Made by a program: the position numbers and the translations under genes
In this document: positions 2,605 to 13,684 of the stretch, one piece after another
Layout of the letters: each line of letters opens with the position of its first letter
Numbering within the stretch: the stretch's first letter is position 1
The notes under the pieces: generated by a model
Told to the model about the DNA's origin: nothing
The model's database searches: none
The model's input: the letters and a program-made list of their open reading frames with translations, nothing else
Source: an uncultured archaeon
GTDB lineage: Archaea; Asgardarchaeota; Lokiarchaeia; Sigyniarchaeales; Promethearchaeaceae
Direction of reading: 5' to 3'
Assembly: GCA_964426185.1 (NCBI GenBank)
Contig: CAYRPF010000030.1
Span: 1-32,000 of the forward strand
DNA: 32,000 nt

Positions 2605-3015
2605 ATGACGCAATTCGGTAGCGATATTGGATTAAATCCAGAAGATATCTTAAAACTTGAGCCAGAAATAACATATATCACTTCAAACTGCAATATTGAA
2701 GCAATAGCATTGACCACGGATACTGGTTATCAAATTGCTTATGCAGCGCTCCCTACATATAAAGTTGATAGTGATGCATTAAGTGGAATCGCCTCAGCAA
2801 TGGTAATGACAGGAAAAATGGGCATGATGAATATGTTTAATGAACCACTTTCAGAAACCATCATTAGAGCCGATAATGGTTATATTGTTGTCACCAATGC
2901 AGGAAGATTTGTTTTAGTTGGTGCTGGGCGTGATATTAAAAATTTGATGAAAACTGTAAAGGTTTTCAGAATTGCTGCCCAGAGAATTGCCGTAAACTTT
3001 CCTGCGGTTGCTTAA
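2605..3015 (+). CDS. Roadblock/LC7 (MglB-like) domain protein
   Basis: 136 aa. 'IEAIALTTDTGYQIA...DALSGIASAM...LSETIIRADNGYIVVTNAG...' follows the roadblock helix/strand pattern. Confidence 0.85.
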   Translation: MTQFGSDIGLNPEDILKLEPEITYITSNCNIEAIALTTDTGYQIAYAALPTYKVDSDALSGIASAMVMTGKMGMMNMFNEPLSETIIRADNGYIVVTNAGRFVLVGAGRDIKNLMKTVKVFRIAAQRIAVNFPAVA

Positions 3016-5374: not shown

Positions 5375-6097
5375 TTAATTATATTTTTCGATTATATCAA
5401 AAAGATCATAGAGACTGTTCAGATGAAAATCTGGCTTCACCAGAAATCTCTGTTTTGTGATATTTGGATCATATTTCGTACCCCGATGAATAAGAGCAGT
5501 AATTATTCCAACTGATTTTGCAGGAGCAATATCGTTATCCACTCGATCACCTATATACAGCATTTCTTGAGGCTTTAAGTGAAATCTATTTAAGAATAGC
5601 TCAAATAAAAATGGATGGGGTTTGCGCGCAGCTACTTCATCAGAGATCAAAATTTCATCAACAATGGGTTCTAATTTCAAACGTAGTATCTTCTCATACT
5701 GTTTTTTAGGAGAGCCATCTGTTATTATTGCCGTTTTAATCTCAAGTTTTTGCAATTTCTGCAATGTTTTAACCACATCTTTAAATAAATGGAAGTGTTT
5801 AACCTTTTCGCGATGATATCCCATAACTCCTGCAGCAACAAATTTATTGATGTTGAATTTTCGACTTAGTTGAACATTGGGATCGTTCCGGAGTCGAATT
5901 ATCAAATTATCCAAATGAAATTCATTGTTACTCCCGAACTCTGCTACAATTTCATTTAACATCTGCGTTGCATAATCTTCTGGAACGGGTAATCCATAAT
6001 TTATCATCATTTGCACTGATGCTTTTCGAGCTTTTTCAACAAGAAGAGTTCCGTTGAAAAGAGTGTCATCCAAATCAAATGCTACGCAGCGAATCAT
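5375..6097 (-). CDS. HAD-superfamily hydrolase (subfamily IA, archaeal TIGR02253-like)
   Basis: Motif I 'FDLDDTL', 'IITDG', 'KPHP', motif IV 'YIGDRVDNDI'. Confidence 0.92.
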   Translation of the reverse strand: MIRCVAFDLDDTLFNGTLLVEKARKASVQMMINYGLPVPEDYATQMLNEIVAEFGSNNEFHLDNLIIRLRNDPNVQLSRKFNINKFVAAGVMGYHREKVKHFHLFKDVVKTLQKLQKLEIKTAIITDGSPKKQYEKILRLKLEPIVDEILISDEVAARKPHPFLFELFLNRFHLKPQEMLYIGDRVDNDIAPAKSVGIITALIHRGTKYDPNITKQRFLVKPDFHLNSLYDLFDIIEKYN

Positions 6098-6152
6098 GAG
6101 AAGTCACAATTTATTCAATTTTTCTATAACAGATGAATAATTAAATTCCATC

Positions 6153-6303
6153 CCGCTTAAATCTTTCCCATAGTAATTTCTGCTAAAAGTCTGAGATGCA
6201 CCCTAACGGTTTAGCATGATTAGTGGCCTAGGGCACATAATGGCTTAGTCATAGTAATGGTTTAACTATGCCTTAGTGTAGCATTAACTCAGAGTTTAAG
6301 CGG
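6153..6303. ncRNA. Candidate structured non-coding RNA or foldback element, family unknown
   Basis: Nested complementary blocks: CCGCTTAAA 6153-6161/TTTAAGCGG 6295-6303; TCTGAG 6190-6195/CTCAGA 6288-6293; ATGC/GCAT; CTAA/TTAG; two apical hairpins. Confidence 0.5.
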
Positions 6304-6384
6304 AAAATGATGAAAATATGAATGCTATGAGATTAACCGATAAGTAGAAAAAAAGAAAATCTAAAATAAAAGGGGAATAAATAA

Positions 6385-7545
6385 CTAAACATCATCTGAA
6401 TTAGAAGTAATACTTCGATAAGAATAAGCCCGAGCAATGTATCCTTTGGTTTCTTTTGGTAAAAGTCCTTTTAAATACTCGGGAAAGCTCGCAGTTAAAA
6501 CTATATCGGTCTTCAGTAAATATAAGTGCTCACCTGCATATGAAAAATCTTGTATAATATTCTTCTGTTTTAAAAATTCTAGATTTTCCAGAAGTTCTTT
6601 TGATGAATCTTCTGAATATAGAGAAAGAATTTTATCTTTGGCAAGTGGTCCTTGCCGCAGCTGTGTGATAATGTTATATTTCTTTGAATCGGCAAAAATA
6701 GTGAATAATTCCAGTGAATCCATCGAAGAAGGGCTATATGTTTCAAAAAAATCTCGGACTTCATTGATATAAATTTCTGTTAAATCAGACATTTCAGGAG
6801 AATCTTCTTCTTCTAAATCTATCACGCAATTGGGAGGTACACGCATAATCGAGACATCTTTTACCAAAAGTACATAAGAATCTTGTCCAATTGAATTAAC
6901 AAACACAAATTTTTGTTCTTGTAATTCTTCTATGATTTTTTCAAAAGAATAATTGGGAAAAACCACTTCAAACCATTTCTGCAAATCTTCATTCGAAATA
7001 GGACCTTTGGATAGTTTTTTAATTACATTGAAGATCTCCTTTTTACTCATTATAGAAGCCCATTTTTCCTCTTCGGTTCGTTCCCTTAATTCTTCTACCC
7101 CAGTCCAATAAAGTTCTTTGAGCCAAAATCTGATATTAGAATTAAACTCTTTTATTTTCGGATAATCTGCTTCAGATACTTGAGTATCTTCAGTACTATA
7201 AAAAGCTTTAAAGAGATTTTTCTGAGTTTTCATTTTTTCAGCAAATTCTCGAGTGAATTCTTTAAAAATAGCTTCTTCCATTTGATTTGGAGTTTTATCA
7301 ATAACAAAGGATACCATTAACATTTCTTTATTTCCACGAGCCCATTCACTGTTAATTTCAAAATAATAATTCATGGAAGCTAGCTTTCCAAATTTGTGTG
7401 TAAAATATCCCTCTTCGTAAATTTGATCCATGAATTCTGCCAGACGACTCTTTTCATCCTCTGTTAGAATATCTTCAGGGAAGCTGTAATACACAATGGG
7501 TCCAATTTTACGGTGGAAATAACTAATAGCGACTGATGCTTGCAT
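6385..7545 (-). CDS. Longin/uDENN-domain protein with two winged-helix-like repeats (NPRL2/folliculin-like)
   Basis: N-terminus 'SYFHRKIGPIVYYSFPEDIL' resembles the uDENN/NPRL2 'F(H/D)...GP.....P' motif; 'FEINSEWARG' motif; two repeats 'I..L..GP......L..L.....I'. Confidence 0.7.
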   Translation of the reverse strand: MQASVAISYFHRKIGPIVYYSFPEDILTEDEKSRLAEFMDQIYEEGYFTHKFGKLASMNYYFEINSEWARGNKEMLMVSFVIDKTPNQMEEAIFKEFTREFAEKMKTQKNLFKAFYSTEDTQVSEADYPKIKEFNSNIRFWLKELYWTGVEELRERTEEEKWASIMSKKEIFNVIKKLSKGPISNEDLQKWFEVVFPNYSFEKIIEELQEQKFVFVNSIGQDSYVLLVKDVSIMRVPPNCVIDLEEEDSPEMSDLTEIYINEVRDFFETYSPSSMDSLELFTIFADSKKYNIITQLRQGPLAKDKILSLYSEDSSKELLENLEFLKQKNIIQDFSYAGEHLYLLKTDIVLTASFPEYLKGLLPKETKGYIARAYSYRSITSNSDDV

Positions 7546-7664
7546 ATTGGTTGCTCGACTTGTTGTTCTTTAATACCTAGATCAAAGTATCTATATTAAA
7601 TAATCTGGTGTTAACCTAAAAAATAATCGGTTAAATAGTTATTTGAAGAAAAAAGAAAAGGATA

Positions 7665-8867
7665 TTATCGATCTCGCTTACCTTCGATAAATTCTTTCAC
7701 CCATTGTTTGGCAATTACATCTGACGGGGGTTGAATATGAGGATGTTTAAATGAAAAAGAACTGATCGATTCTAAACGACCAGATATTTTACGATCTAGT
7801 GCTAATTTCATCACTCGAATAATATCACAAACCACTCCAGCGCTGTTTGGCGAATCCTCGACACGAAGTTTCATGTCTGCAATTAATGAAAGACCTCCAA
7901 AGGTTTCACCCTCAATGCGGATATAACAAATTTTCTTATCTCGTAAAAATGGTACATAGTCAGAAGGTCCAATTCGACAATCAATATCATATGGTAAAAC
8001 ACTGGTAACTGCACTCGTCTTAGACTTTCTCTTAGTCGTTAGCCTGCTCTCCATTTTCATATTTTCAAAATCAGTATTGCCTCCGATATTCAATTGATAC
8101 GTGTTTTTTACAATTACTCCACGATCCAAGAAGAGTTTAGCCAAAACACGGTGAGAGATCGTGGCTCCAACTTGACTTTTTATATCATCGCCCGCGCATG
8201 GTAACCCCGCTTTTTCAAATTCTGCCACCCAATCTTTATCACCTTCTACATGTTCACTTACAATAAATTCTGGAATAGCATTAATAAATCCACAACCAGC
8301 ATCTATTGCCGCTTGTGCATAAGCTCTTGAAGCATGATATGATCCTACAGGAAGAAAGTTTACCAAAATATCTGCTTTTGTATCTCGTAGGACTTGAGCA
8401 ACGTCAACGGGTTCGATTTTTTGGGGATCGTAACGATGAAAACTTTCAACCATATGTGGTGCACATCCATCTAAAATTGGTCCAGGTTGCACAATTACAT
8501 TTAGTTTGGGCATTTTTTCATGGGGAACAATTGGTTGAACAACATTAGGAGGTTCATATATTGCATCTGCAACATCCTTTCCAATTTTAAGAGCATTAAT
8601 TTCAAAAGAAGCTACAAATTTGATATCACGGTAAAGATATCCTCCAACACTTGGATTCATCAAACCCTTGATATATGAGTCTACAGGACTGATATTTTTA
8701 TAATATTCGGTTCCCATTACCAAAGCAGCTGCACAGTTTCCTAATCCCGCGAGGGCTACGCGTATTTCGCGCTTTTTATCTGTTCTTGGAGGAACAATGG
8801 AATCCCCTATAGTCATTTCGGATTTATCTGCAATTTCATCAATAAAATTTTGCTCATTCTCTTTCAT
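7665..8867 (-). CDS. ino1: Myo-inositol-1-phosphate synthase
   Basis: 'GLGNCA' Rossmann motif, 'NFLPVGS', 'GDDIKSQVGAT', 'YQLNIGGNTDF', 'VEDSPNSAG'. Confidence 0.97.
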   Translation of the reverse strand: MKENEQNFIDEIADKSEMTIGDSIVPPRTDKKREIRVALAGLGNCAAALVMGTEYYKNISPVDSYIKGLMNPSVGGYLYRDIKFVASFEINALKIGKDVADAIYEPPNVVQPIVPHEKMPKLNVIVQPGPILDGCAPHMVESFHRYDPQKIEPVDVAQVLRDTKADILVNFLPVGSYHASRAYAQAAIDAGCGFINAIPEFIVSEHVEGDKDWVAEFEKAGLPCAGDDIKSQVGATISHRVLAKLFLDRGVIVKNTYQLNIGGNTDFENMKMESRLTTKRKSKTSAVTSVLPYDIDCRIGPSDYVPFLRDKKICYIRIEGETFGGLSLIADMKLRVEDSPNSAGVVCDIIRVMKLALDRKISGRLESISSFSFKHPHIQPPSDVIAKQWVKEFIEGKRDR

Positions 8868-8946
8868 TTATTGTACACCTAAATTCTAAAAAAATTTGCT
8901 GTAAACATTTATTTTGGGAATGTAAATTAAAGGTTCGCGTTTTATA

Positions 8947-8963
8947 GATCCTATAATAGGATC
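8947..8963. promoter_or_regulatory. 17-bp palindrome, putative operator between divergent ino1 and RHH gene
   Basis: GATCCTAT-A-ATAGGATC with perfect 8-bp arms, abutting a TATA-like TTTTATA (8940-8946). Confidence 0.55.
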
Positions 8964-9007
8964 AAAATAGGAATATATACATATTTTCCTGATTTATTTC
9001 ATATTTA

Positions 9008-9475
9008 ATGTCGAATCAACGAGATTATAACCAAGTTGAAATGGTTCGCTTGAAATTGTATATTCCACTTGAAAAATATCATCAATGGATGCATTATTTG
9101 AAACAAAATCATCCTAATTCTCAATTTTTTACAAATTTTAGCAATTGGGTTCGCACAGCTTTAATTAAGCTTCCATCTCCAGGTGTATCTCCATTATTTC
9201 CCAAATCAATTGAAAATCTAAGTAATGATCATTCTGCCAGAAAAATGCTAGAAAAGGTGGTCTGGATAAAAAAATCAACTAAAATGTCATTATTGGAAAG
9301 GAAAGGTCATTTTTCTTTGAATAGTTACGTAATCCTCATTTTGGATATTCATACCTTTGGGATATCTTCATTTCAATCACTTATCTATCAAATCTTGCAA
9401 CTTCAATCCCGAGTAAATGAAATTGAAGAAAAAGTGAGAATAATAGATGAAAAATTAGTTTTTTTTAAGGAATAG
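9008..9475 (+). CDS. Putative tandem ribbon-helix-helix DNA-binding protein with C-terminal coiled coil
   Basis: 'RLKLYIPLEKYHQW...NFSNWVRTAL' and 'KVVWIKKSTKMSL...SLNSYVILIL' each fit strand-helix-helix; the tail is heptad-like. Confidence 0.5.
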   Translation: MSNQRDYNQVEMVRLKLYIPLEKYHQWMHYLKQNHPNSQFFTNFSNWVRTALIKLPSPGVSPLFPKSIENLSNDHSARKMLEKVVWIKKSTKMSLLERKGHFSLNSYVILILDIHTFGISSFQSLIYQILQLQSRVNEIEEKVRIIDEKLVFFKE

Positions 9476-9549
9476 GCTCAGTGTGGGGCGACAATTTCAT
9501 CTGCTTTGCATCATTTGTCATAGGTTCATCATTGCCCAGAAATTATTAT

Positions 9550-9828
9550 TTAACAATATTCTTTGATACACTTTAGAAATTCGTATCCACGAGCTGATAC
9601 TTTATAACTATCTTCTCCATGTTGTTCAATTAGTTTTAAATTCAAAAGAACAGGCATTCTTCCTGAGATACAAGCATGAGGAACACCCGACATCATTTGG
9701 ATAGAATCACGATTTTCTGCTCCACGTGCAATTGCGATAAGCATTTGAATACCAAATTCACCCAAAATATATTTATAACTGCGTAATTCTTCCAAATCAT
9801 AGGAAACATCTGTTGAAGTTCCATCCAT
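9550..9828 (-). CDS. Small winged helix-turn-helix protein
   Basis: 'IQMLIAIARGA...IQMMSGVPHACISGRMPVLLNLKLIE....YKVSARG' is a wHTH pattern. ATG at 9828 is preferred over the upstream TTG at 9879. Confidence 0.75.
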   Translation of the reverse strand: MDGTSTDVSYDLEELRSYKYILGEFGIQMLIAIARGAENRDSIQMMSGVPHACISGRMPVLLNLKLIEQHGEDSYKVSARGYEFLKCIKEYC

Positions 9829-9904
9829 AAAATCAACTGGTGGTATTATAAGTACCAAATTTTTGAAATACTCAAACAATTACAATGTTCAATAAAAAAA
9901 AAAA

Positions 9905-12991: not shown

Positions 12992-13684
12992 TTATAATTC
13001 TGGAACATTTTTTGATAATTTTACAGGTTTCGAAGTATCCGGTGCCTTTCCATCTCCAATTGCCTGATAAATGGCAGTTCGGCGCGCTAATTCCGAAAAA
13101 ACTTGGTAAACATTCATTGCATTTTCATAAAGCGCAATACTTTCATAAACAATTGGATTCCACATATGTAGTGGATGTGATGGGGGATAAAATAGATTTT
13201 CTTGTTTCAGAATTTCTTCTACTTCTCTTTTCTTCATAGTATCAGGTAAATCTTGTTTATTAACCATAACTAAAAGCGGAATGTCTGAAATTAATTTTCC
13301 TTCAGATACATTCTTTAATTCTTTTAATGCTTGAATGTTATCTTCCAATCTGCTACGTTGAGCATCAAACATTAAAATTACACCATCAGTTCCTGTAAAA
13401 ATTTTTTTACGTAAAGGACTGAAACGAGCTTGGCCAGCAGTGGTATAAACATGGTAAAAAACCTTATTCTCCTTTTTAGATTGAAATATTCCCCGATCAA
13501 AGTAAAGAGTAGAACCACTCGCCATCGCAATTTTTGTCAAAGTTCCTGTAGGTTCGACTGCATCGTTATATTTCTCTTTACATAACCGATACAAACTATC
13601 GACGGCAGTAGTTTTTCCACTTCCAGCGCATCCCCAATAAAGTAACTTAACAAAAACTTCCCCATTTTTATACAATCGAACCAT
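12992..13684 (-). CDS. MglA-like small GTPase (Ras superfamily)
   Basis: G1 GCAGSGKTT, MglA-type G2 'TLYFD', G3 'TTAGQ' lacking the Ras Asp (as in MglA TVPGQ), G4 NKQD, G5-like 'SIA'. Confidence 0.9.
   Translation of the reverse strand: MVRLYKNGEVFVKLLYWGCAGSGKTTAVDSLYRLCKEKYNDAVEPTGTLTKIAMASGSTLYFDRGIFQSKKENKVFYHVYTTAGQARFSPLRKKIFTGTDGVILMFDAQRSRLEDNIQALKELKNVSEGKLISDIPLLVMVNKQDLPDTMKKREVEEILKQENLFYPPSHPLHMWNPIVYESIALYENAMNVYQVFSELARRTAIYQAIGDGKAPDTSKPVKLSKNVPEL

Follow-up and report, generated by a model that had tools for sequence, protein, structure and literature searches.

The 32,000-nucleotide stretch analysed here (hereafter the window) comprises positions 1 to 32,000 of contig CAYRPF010000030.1 (assembly GCA_964426185.1), from an uncultured Asgard archaeon of the Promethearchaeaceae. 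Its minus strand encodes, at positions 6385 to 7545, a protein of 386 amino acids in which a longin domain is followed by two winged-helix domains. We consider it highly probable that this is a small-GTPase-associated longin protein of the NPRL2/folliculin type, while the chances that it acts as the longin subunit of an Asgard GTPase-activating protein (GAP), a reading drawn from its sequence and predicted structure, appear to us evenly balanced. At the lysosome of eukaryotes, Rag and Arf GTPases are turned off by longin GAP complexes, namely GATOR1, folliculin and C9orf72-SMCR8. NPRL2 (Npr2 in yeast) is the arginine-finger subunit of GATOR1/SEACIT, the GAP for RagA/Gtr1, and GAP longins pair with a longin subunit that has no such arginine, namely NPRL3, FNIP or C9orf72. 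The gene in the window has the following parts:

6385..7545, minus strand: whole gene, 386 amino acids; longin, two winged-helix domains and a disordered tail (residues 365-386), from the open reading frame (ORF), its translation and the AlphaFold2 model
7087..7545, minus strand: residues 1-153, longin domain; AlphaFold2 topology, VIA-align and family profile give it as NPRL2/folliculin (GAP-complex) type
7498..7503, minus strand: G15-P16, the 'GP motif', in the beta1-beta2 turn, from conservation and the profile alignment to NPRL2 G20-P21
7336..7338, minus strand: R70, in the beta4-beta5 loop (S66-N72), a candidate arginine finger, from conservation, loop position in the AlphaFold2 model and hidden Markov model alignment
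6835..7086, minus strand: winged-helix domain 1, residues 154-237, from AlphaFold2 elements and structural matches
6460..6735, minus strand: winged-helix domain 2, residues 271-362, from AlphaFold2 elements and a weak ArsR-type NCBIfam match

The reading frame is open throughout, and the segment YYFEINSEWARGNKEMLMVSFV, singled out by an earlier note on this DNA as an arginine-finger motif of the FLCN/SMCR8/NPRL2 kind, corresponds to residues 60-81. The AlphaFold2 model, built on 37 alignment rows, has a mean predicted local distance difference test score (pLDDT) of 85.6 and a predicted template-modelling score (pTM) of 0.72. Residues 1-153 follow the order beta-beta-alpha-beta-beta-beta-alpha-alpha of the longin topology, with strands at 3-11 and 15-22, a helix at 29-40, strands at 46-52, 55-65 and 73-82, and closing helices at 88-106, 111-115 and 125-153. 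As the note had anticipated, R70 (codon 7336-7338) is placed in a loop between two strands, residues 66-72 between strands 4 and 5, and the 10-residue blocks containing this loop have mean pLDDT values of 90-92; the loop is where the arginines of longin-type GAPs are reported to lie in the available parts of two sources (bioRxiv 10.64898/2026.01.05.697756; PMC8534245). The two winged helix-turn-helix-like repeats announced for the C-terminal half are also present in the model, as four-helix plus three-strand units at residues 158-236 (helices 158-166, 169-179, 185-195 and 201-210; strands 214-219, 222-227 and 230-236) and 274-353 (helices 274-285, 287-297, 303-309 and 312-327; strands 331-336, 339-344 and 347-353), joined by an acidic linker of lower model confidence. 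Their net charges are -1 and -3 (isoelectric point 5.0-5.5), with medians of -1 and +2 over 81 orthologues. The proposed likeness to NPRL2 in architecture and length is likewise borne out, with a longin domain followed by two winged helices and 386 versus 380 amino acids.

Comparison of the model with solved structures pointed to the longins of GAP complexes. The 17 best Foldseek matches in the PDB, headed by 9v0j_A (E=3.6e-6), came without exception from GATOR1/SEAC or folliculin-FNIP2 entries; the long alignments had root-mean-square deviations above 20 Å and TM-scores of 0.18-0.29, so that the domain order corresponds but the relative orientation of the domains does not. VIA-align, run on the Foldseek match list, ranked 8dhb_J highest (Z 14.3, 2.5 Å over 135 residues), followed by 9o5a_H (14.1), 9v0j_A and 8fw5_C (both 13.2), 7t3b_B (12.9) and the Lokiarchaeal longin 8yqg_A (12.8), with the longins of Ykt6, Sec22b and VAMP7 at 9.9-10.3. 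In a VIA-align search over 48,161 chains, independent of Foldseek, 6nzd_H came first (Z 13.0, 2.7 Å over 138 residues) and the NPRL2 chain 8fw5_B scored 12.2; ranks three to six were taken by 8yqg_B of the Lokiarchaeal longin (11.8), 8adl_S (11.5), 4zy8_C, which is Lst4 (10.9), and 7o2w_A (10.6). The top six are thus GAP-complex longins plus one Lokiarchaeal longin, and other longins reached at most 9.9. The sequences of 6ces_N, 7t3a/b, 9v0j, 8fw5_B, 9o5a and 9o5d were named NPRL2 in the profile search described below, with 11-15% identity in the structural alignments to NPRL2; the folliculin-complex entry chains 8dhb_J, 6nzd_H and 6ulg_L (Z 13.0-14.3, 2.5-2.7 Å, 135-138 residues) we take to be FLCN, judging by the entry titles. 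The C-terminal half matched winged helices of the ArsR/SmtB type (Z 8-10), and winged-helix domain 1 matched SqrR, YodB and Rv0081 at Z 9.6-10.4. Of the label 'longin/uDENN' in the earlier note, the first half is upheld by topology and fold ranking, and the second has as its sole basis a sub-threshold Afi1 match with E=0.1.

That match, to residues 8-39, reached 13.5 of the 25.5 bits needed, and the single protein sequence, searched against Pfam, NCBIfam and PDB sequences, gave sub-threshold matches only, including a weak ArsR-type NCBIfam match at residues 279-347 (E=0.02) and a citrate synthase (E=0.42). Twenty-six family members scanned singly against Pfam produced Afi1 in three cases and Folliculin in one, all below threshold. 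A profile of 26 members, consisting of the N-domain of the window protein and 25 mostly stand-alone relatives, ranked human NPRL2 highest among solved sequences (E=0.006), ahead of an unrelated helical protein at E=0.76. The alignment to NPRL2 pairs G15-P16 with G20-P21 and P23-E24-D25 with P28-E29-D30.

The arginine is kept in all or most homologues of each set compared. A word-indexed search gave 334 homologues at E<=0.001, 120 of them among the matches listed; every source name given for these 120 is an Asgard one, and nearly all are annotated as 'hypothetical protein'. R70 is present in all 36 covering rows of an alignment of 37 of these 120 (the remaining row is a fragment). It is also invariant, together with G15, P16 and G71, in all 81 ORFs of the orthologue set, made up of the window and 80 genome loci. 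An exhaustive search gave 436 representatives at E<=0.001, from which we assembled a diverged set of 93 sequences with at most 50% mutual identity, namely the window protein and those 92, out of 147 other representatives listed, whose match covers the whole domain; of the sets compared, this one is the more telling. Here G15 is kept in 92, P16 in 90, R70 in 85 and G71 in 80 of the 93, which places them among the dozen best-kept columns. The tripeptide 'ARG' by itself is within chance expectation; at the level of sequence it is the conservation that carries weight. In the available text of one paper, a GP motif together with an arginine finger is given as the mark of GAP-type longins, also in Asgard longins (PMC12290439, Traffic 2025).

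The strongest evidence, independent of fold, that this domain works with Arf-type GTPases comes from domain fusions. We scanned with Pfam 42 of 150 listed representatives, chosen among the longer ones, and in seven of them an Arf-family GTPase domain directly follows the longin domain. PAS and/or histidine-kinase domains occur in eight, three of which also have the Arf domain; the other fusions are to TIR (one), TBP (one, P0153) and a PRTase-associated winged helix (two), and 25 of the 42 gave no Pfam match. The GP motif and the R-G pair are kept in all seven Arf fusions and in the five PAS-carrying proteins without an Arf domain.

What we infer beyond these observations, namely that the window protein binds a GTPase, that it is catalytic and dimerises, and which GTPase it targets, can be put together in the following model. 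The N-terminal longin domain would dock a small GTPase, Arf-like or Rag-like, in its GTP-bound state, G15-P16 in the beta1-beta2 turn and R70 in the beta4-beta5 loop would make up the catalytic pocket, and R70 would reach the nucleotide as an arginine finger and speed up GTP hydrolysis. The winged helices probably hold protein partners, like the C-terminal halves of NPRL2 and NPRL3, rather than DNA; a charge of -1/-3 and an isoelectric point of about 5 suit protein contacts better than DNA. Candidate partners are a second copy of the protein, a paralogue without the arginine, or the co-encoded small winged-helix protein described below.

Several findings weigh against a GAP of this type. The invariance of R70 among orthologues is not special by itself, since 71 of the 386 positions are near-invariant within the orthogroup, and in eight of the 93 diverged relatives the arginine is replaced by H, C, K, Q or Y or falls in a gap. 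The profile alignment to NPRL2 is off by one in the critical loop, which is aligned without gaps: R70 stands opposite S77, and G71 opposite R78. R70 is thus in the right loop of the model and is a candidate equivalent of NPRL2 R78, one column apart by profile. Pfam NPR2, Folliculin and DENN gave no match to the protein at E<=10, and NPR2 (PF06218) gave none in the whole genome at E<=1. In Z, GAP-complex longins (10.6-13) stand above the other longins (<=9.9) by a margin that is real, if modest. No GTPase gene adjoins the longin gene in the window, where the nearest (12992-13684) is 5.4 kb away behind genes for L15e and RNase P; a Rag-like GTPase gene is found near the orthologue, in the divergent operon of a HAD-family hydrolase, in 27 of the 81 loci, including those of Promethearchaeum syntrophicum and Lokiarchaeum ossiferum, and it is absent from the window. 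Lastly, we found in the literature no measured activity, binding or target for any Asgard longin. As for possible targets, the genome has 52 places that match the Arf model, which is unspecific (it is also positive in 12 of 14 control genomes), and 26 that match Gtr1/RagA; a clear one-to-one counterpart of the Rag-like GTPase was not found in this genome, the best matches being 33-37% identical, with several tied.

An explanation that we regard as possible but doubtful is that the protein is a non-catalytic GTPase platform, i.e. a scaffold of the longin/roadblock type, an exchange factor or an effector, in which the GP motif and the arginine are kept for binding or folding and not for hydrolysis. 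Most longin/roadblock dimers are platforms or guanine-nucleotide exchange factors and only occasionally GAPs, as far as the available text of the sources goes (PMC10933270; PMC3747258), fold alone does not separate the two, as the Z scores of Ykt6, Sec22b and VAMP7 illustrate, and the Arf-domain fusions are compatible with a GTPase partner of any kind. Against such a platform stands that the GP motif and the beta4-beta5 arginine are reported, in the available part of PMC12290439, to be absent from non-GAP longins, whereas here both are among the best-kept columns of 93 diverged relatives, and that the top fold matches are longins of GAP complexes.

We think it unlikely that the protein is a transcription regulator whose ArsR/SmtB-like winged helices bind DNA while the longin domain senses a ligand or a GTPase. 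The resemblance of the C-terminal half to the bacterial and archaeal repressors SqrR, YodB, HlyU and CadC (Z 8-10), the ArsR match in NCBIfam, the source label 'ArsR family regulator' of one homologue (P0040), the winged-helix nature of the conserved partner gene and the longin-TBP fusion in P0153 would all fit such a role. Its winged helices are nevertheless acidic to neutral, as are those of the orthologues by their medians, no Pfam DNA-binding family scored above threshold, and NPRL2/3 carry the same winged-helix repeats (PMC3747258), their C-terminal domains forming a large mutual contact surface in the accessible portion of PMC8534245. A role unrelated to GTPases and tied to the neighbouring genes, for example as a regulator or partner of the adjacent HAD-family phosphatase, is in our view very improbable: the adjacency to the HAD gene is steadier than that to any GTPase gene, and a myo-inositol-1-phosphate synthase gene lies directly upstream in the window's lineage, but genes for L15e and RNase P are nearby, so that the neighbours may have stayed together through an inherited order of genes, no functional link between longin and HAD proteins was found in the literature, and the Arf fusions point to GTPases.

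Among known systems, NPRL2 resembles the window protein in its longin domain and repeated winged helices, a feature of NPRL2/3 (PMC3747258), in the exact alignment of GP and P-E-D, in an arginine in the same loop and in its place among the top fold matches. It differs in that the window protein has no Pfam NPR2 match, is only 11-15% identical in structural alignment and has R70 one column off R78, and no TINI segment was identified in it; IML1 (PF12257), the family of the DEPDC5/Iml1 partner, has no match at E<=1 in the window's genome, which is 92.4% complete. Because of the missing NPR2 match, the missing Iml1/DEPDC5 homologue and the low identity, we do not file the protein as an NPRL2 orthologue; it fits a broader class of GP-plus-arginine longins. 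FLCN and SMCR8 share the logic of GP motif plus arginine, and chains of folliculin-complex entries rank at or near the top by structure, but the window protein has no DENN domain after the longin, its C-terminal half being two winged helices, and no Pfam Folliculin match. The monomeric 'DENN GAPs' Avl9, Afi1 and DENND6A are alike in a predicted catalytic arginine between longin strands 4 and 5, the position given for Avl9-type GAPs in the available text of bioRxiv 10.64898/2026.01.05.697756, and in the weak Afi1 match seen here; they are unlike in that the window protein has no cDENN domain and that the Afi1 match is far below threshold.

The class and its GP and arginine motifs have already been published for Asgard archaea. 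In the part of their preprint available, Liu et al. describe NPRL2-like longin families, one of which has the domain organisation of NPRL2 in Thor and some Loki genomes, as well as fusions of Asgard longins to two-component domains (bioRxiv 10.1101/2020.10.19.343400), and an 'NPRL2-like longin domain' appears as a class of eukaryotic signature proteins in the available text of Rodrigues-Oliveira et al. (PMC9834061). Our protein is like these published NPRL2-like and FLCN/SMCR8-type longins in phylum, domain type, GP motif plus arginine and PAS/histidine-kinase fusions; no paper naming the orthologue locus tags DSAG12_00773 (P. syntrophicum MK-D1) and K9W44_02415 was found in the literature searched. 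New here are the profile-level alignment to NPRL2, the existence in the same genome of paralogues with the same architecture and no arginine, the near-universal neighbour pair of a HAD gene and a small winged-helix gene, the latter fused to the longin gene in two loci, and the status of the gene as a core gene in two families.

This last point comes from a sample of 201 genomes of the phylum, in which full-length orthologues were found in all three sampled genomes of the window's family and all 46 of another family belonging to that order (f2); outside these two families we saw a match to the C-terminal half only, or nothing, bearing in mind that sampling of this kind does not establish absence. 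The N-domain family is broader, with matches at E<=1e-8 in 82 of the 201 genomes: 3/3 in the window's family, 46/46 in f2, 23/24 in f5, 5/7 in f14 and 0/48 in f7. The orthogroup includes the cultured P. syntrophicum and L. ossiferum. It is a practical test case, its protein being small and confidently predicted, and occurring in all sampled genomes of two families and in cultured organisms, with defined point mutants (R70, G15/P16) and candidate partners. Should an Asgard protein that shares this fold, these motifs and an NPRL2-like domain order prove to be a working GAP, the regulatory logic would predate eukaryotes; that idea is already in the literature, so that the present case is of value less as a discovery than as something concrete to experiment on.

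Two further genes of the window belong to the conserved surroundings of the longin gene:

5375..6097, minus strand: HAD-family hydrolase, 240 amino acids, conserved neighbour (Pfam HAD_2, E=5.5e-25)
9550..9879, minus strand: small winged-helix protein, 109 amino acids, conserved partner (weak HTH_45 match, E=0.055)

The HAD hydrolase gene adjoins the longin gene in 78 of the 81 loci, divergently in 76 (median gap 198 nt); the window and the two loci closest to it (L004 and L005) have it downstream on the same strand. A separate gene for the small winged-helix protein (81-127 amino acids) is present in 73 loci, in 64 of them immediately downstream in the same orientation (median gap 43 nt), and in two further loci the protein is fused to the longin protein (L013 1453-2889 and L028 5986-7416); of the other six loci, five break off shortly after the longin gene. 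In the window this gene is about 2 kb upstream of the longin gene, with a myo-inositol-1-phosphate synthase gene and one ORF between. The small winged-helix family has no Pfam family above threshold and shows invariant G40, G43, G53-A54, C70, G73-R74 and P76. Prediction of a complex between the full longin protein and this partner, both given as alignments, scored 0.00 in both runs, a result that counts neither way.

Gene order around the longin gene varies by lineage, as seen when positions 5375-9879 of the window are compared with L007 and L016. The myo-inositol-1-phosphate synthase gene (7665-8867 in the window) adjoins the longin gene, before the small winged-helix gene, in the window, L004, L007 and L011. 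The Rag-like GTPase gene, missing from the window, stands between the genes for TFB and a PPIase in L007 and L011. A 136-amino-acid Roadblock/LC7 protein (Pfam E=4e-5) is encoded at 2605-3015 on the plus strand of the window, and the same family occurs near the orthologue in L004, L007 and L011.

The genome of the window also encodes at least two paralogues without the arginine, of 377 amino acids on contig C34 (L089 1471-2604, minus strand) and of 405 amino acids, ending in a run of N, on contig C77 (L088 1501-2718, plus strand), with weaker matches on contigs C76 and C20. They have the C-terminal half and the overall build in common with the longin protein, while the GP motif and the loop arginine are both gone; instead, W13 and G18 are invariant in their family, within the string 'W-D-E-R-x-G', whose W...G spacing equals that of W33-D34...G38-P39 in C9orf72, the latter as given in the available text of PMC12290439. 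The model of the C34 paralogue (pLDDT 88.2, pTM 0.81) has a longin domain and two winged helices, and its fold search is flat (NPRL2 11.9, VAMP7 11.1, a chain of a FNIP2 entry 10.3), so that, going by this model, it is a longin without specific affinity to any longin subclass. An hhalign comparison of the orthologue alignment with the arginine-less paralogue aligned the C-terminal halves only (200-361 with 171-335, probability 97%), so that sequence comparison gives no support for homology between the N-domains. By likeness to NPRL2-NPRL3 or SMCR8-C9orf72, the arginine-less paralogues are candidate partners of the longin protein. The C34 and C77 genes each start at or overlap the stop of a gene whose product, about 450-500 amino acids long, has a hydrophobic stretch near its C-terminus; the sequences suggest that these upstream proteins are single-pass surface proteins and that the pair forms a conserved two-gene unit. 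By the same analogy, the longin protein might be the catalytic half of a two-subunit archaeal GAP, with the C34 or C77 product as its partner, that relays a signal from the cell surface to a small GTPase. We hold this for rather unlikely; were it true, the two-subunit GAP would be a pre-eukaryotic counterpart of NPRL2-NPRL3 or SMCR8-C9orf72.

Two more longin proteins with GP motif and arginine are encoded in the same genome, one of 299 amino acids on contig C80 and another on contig C33 that is fused to TPR repeats. The C80 gene (L002 1486-2385, plus strand) lies about 2.3 kb from a small Arf/Ras-type GTPase gene on the same strand (C80:5838-6335), with a gene for a membrane helix-turn-helix protein between them. 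On contig C24 (32675-33640, minus strand) a single frame of 473 amino acids combines a Gtr1/RagA match (E=2.3e-23) with a sub-threshold Folliculin match (E=0.0025) just upstream in the protein and, judging by these matches, may join a folliculin-like longin to a Rag-like GTPase.

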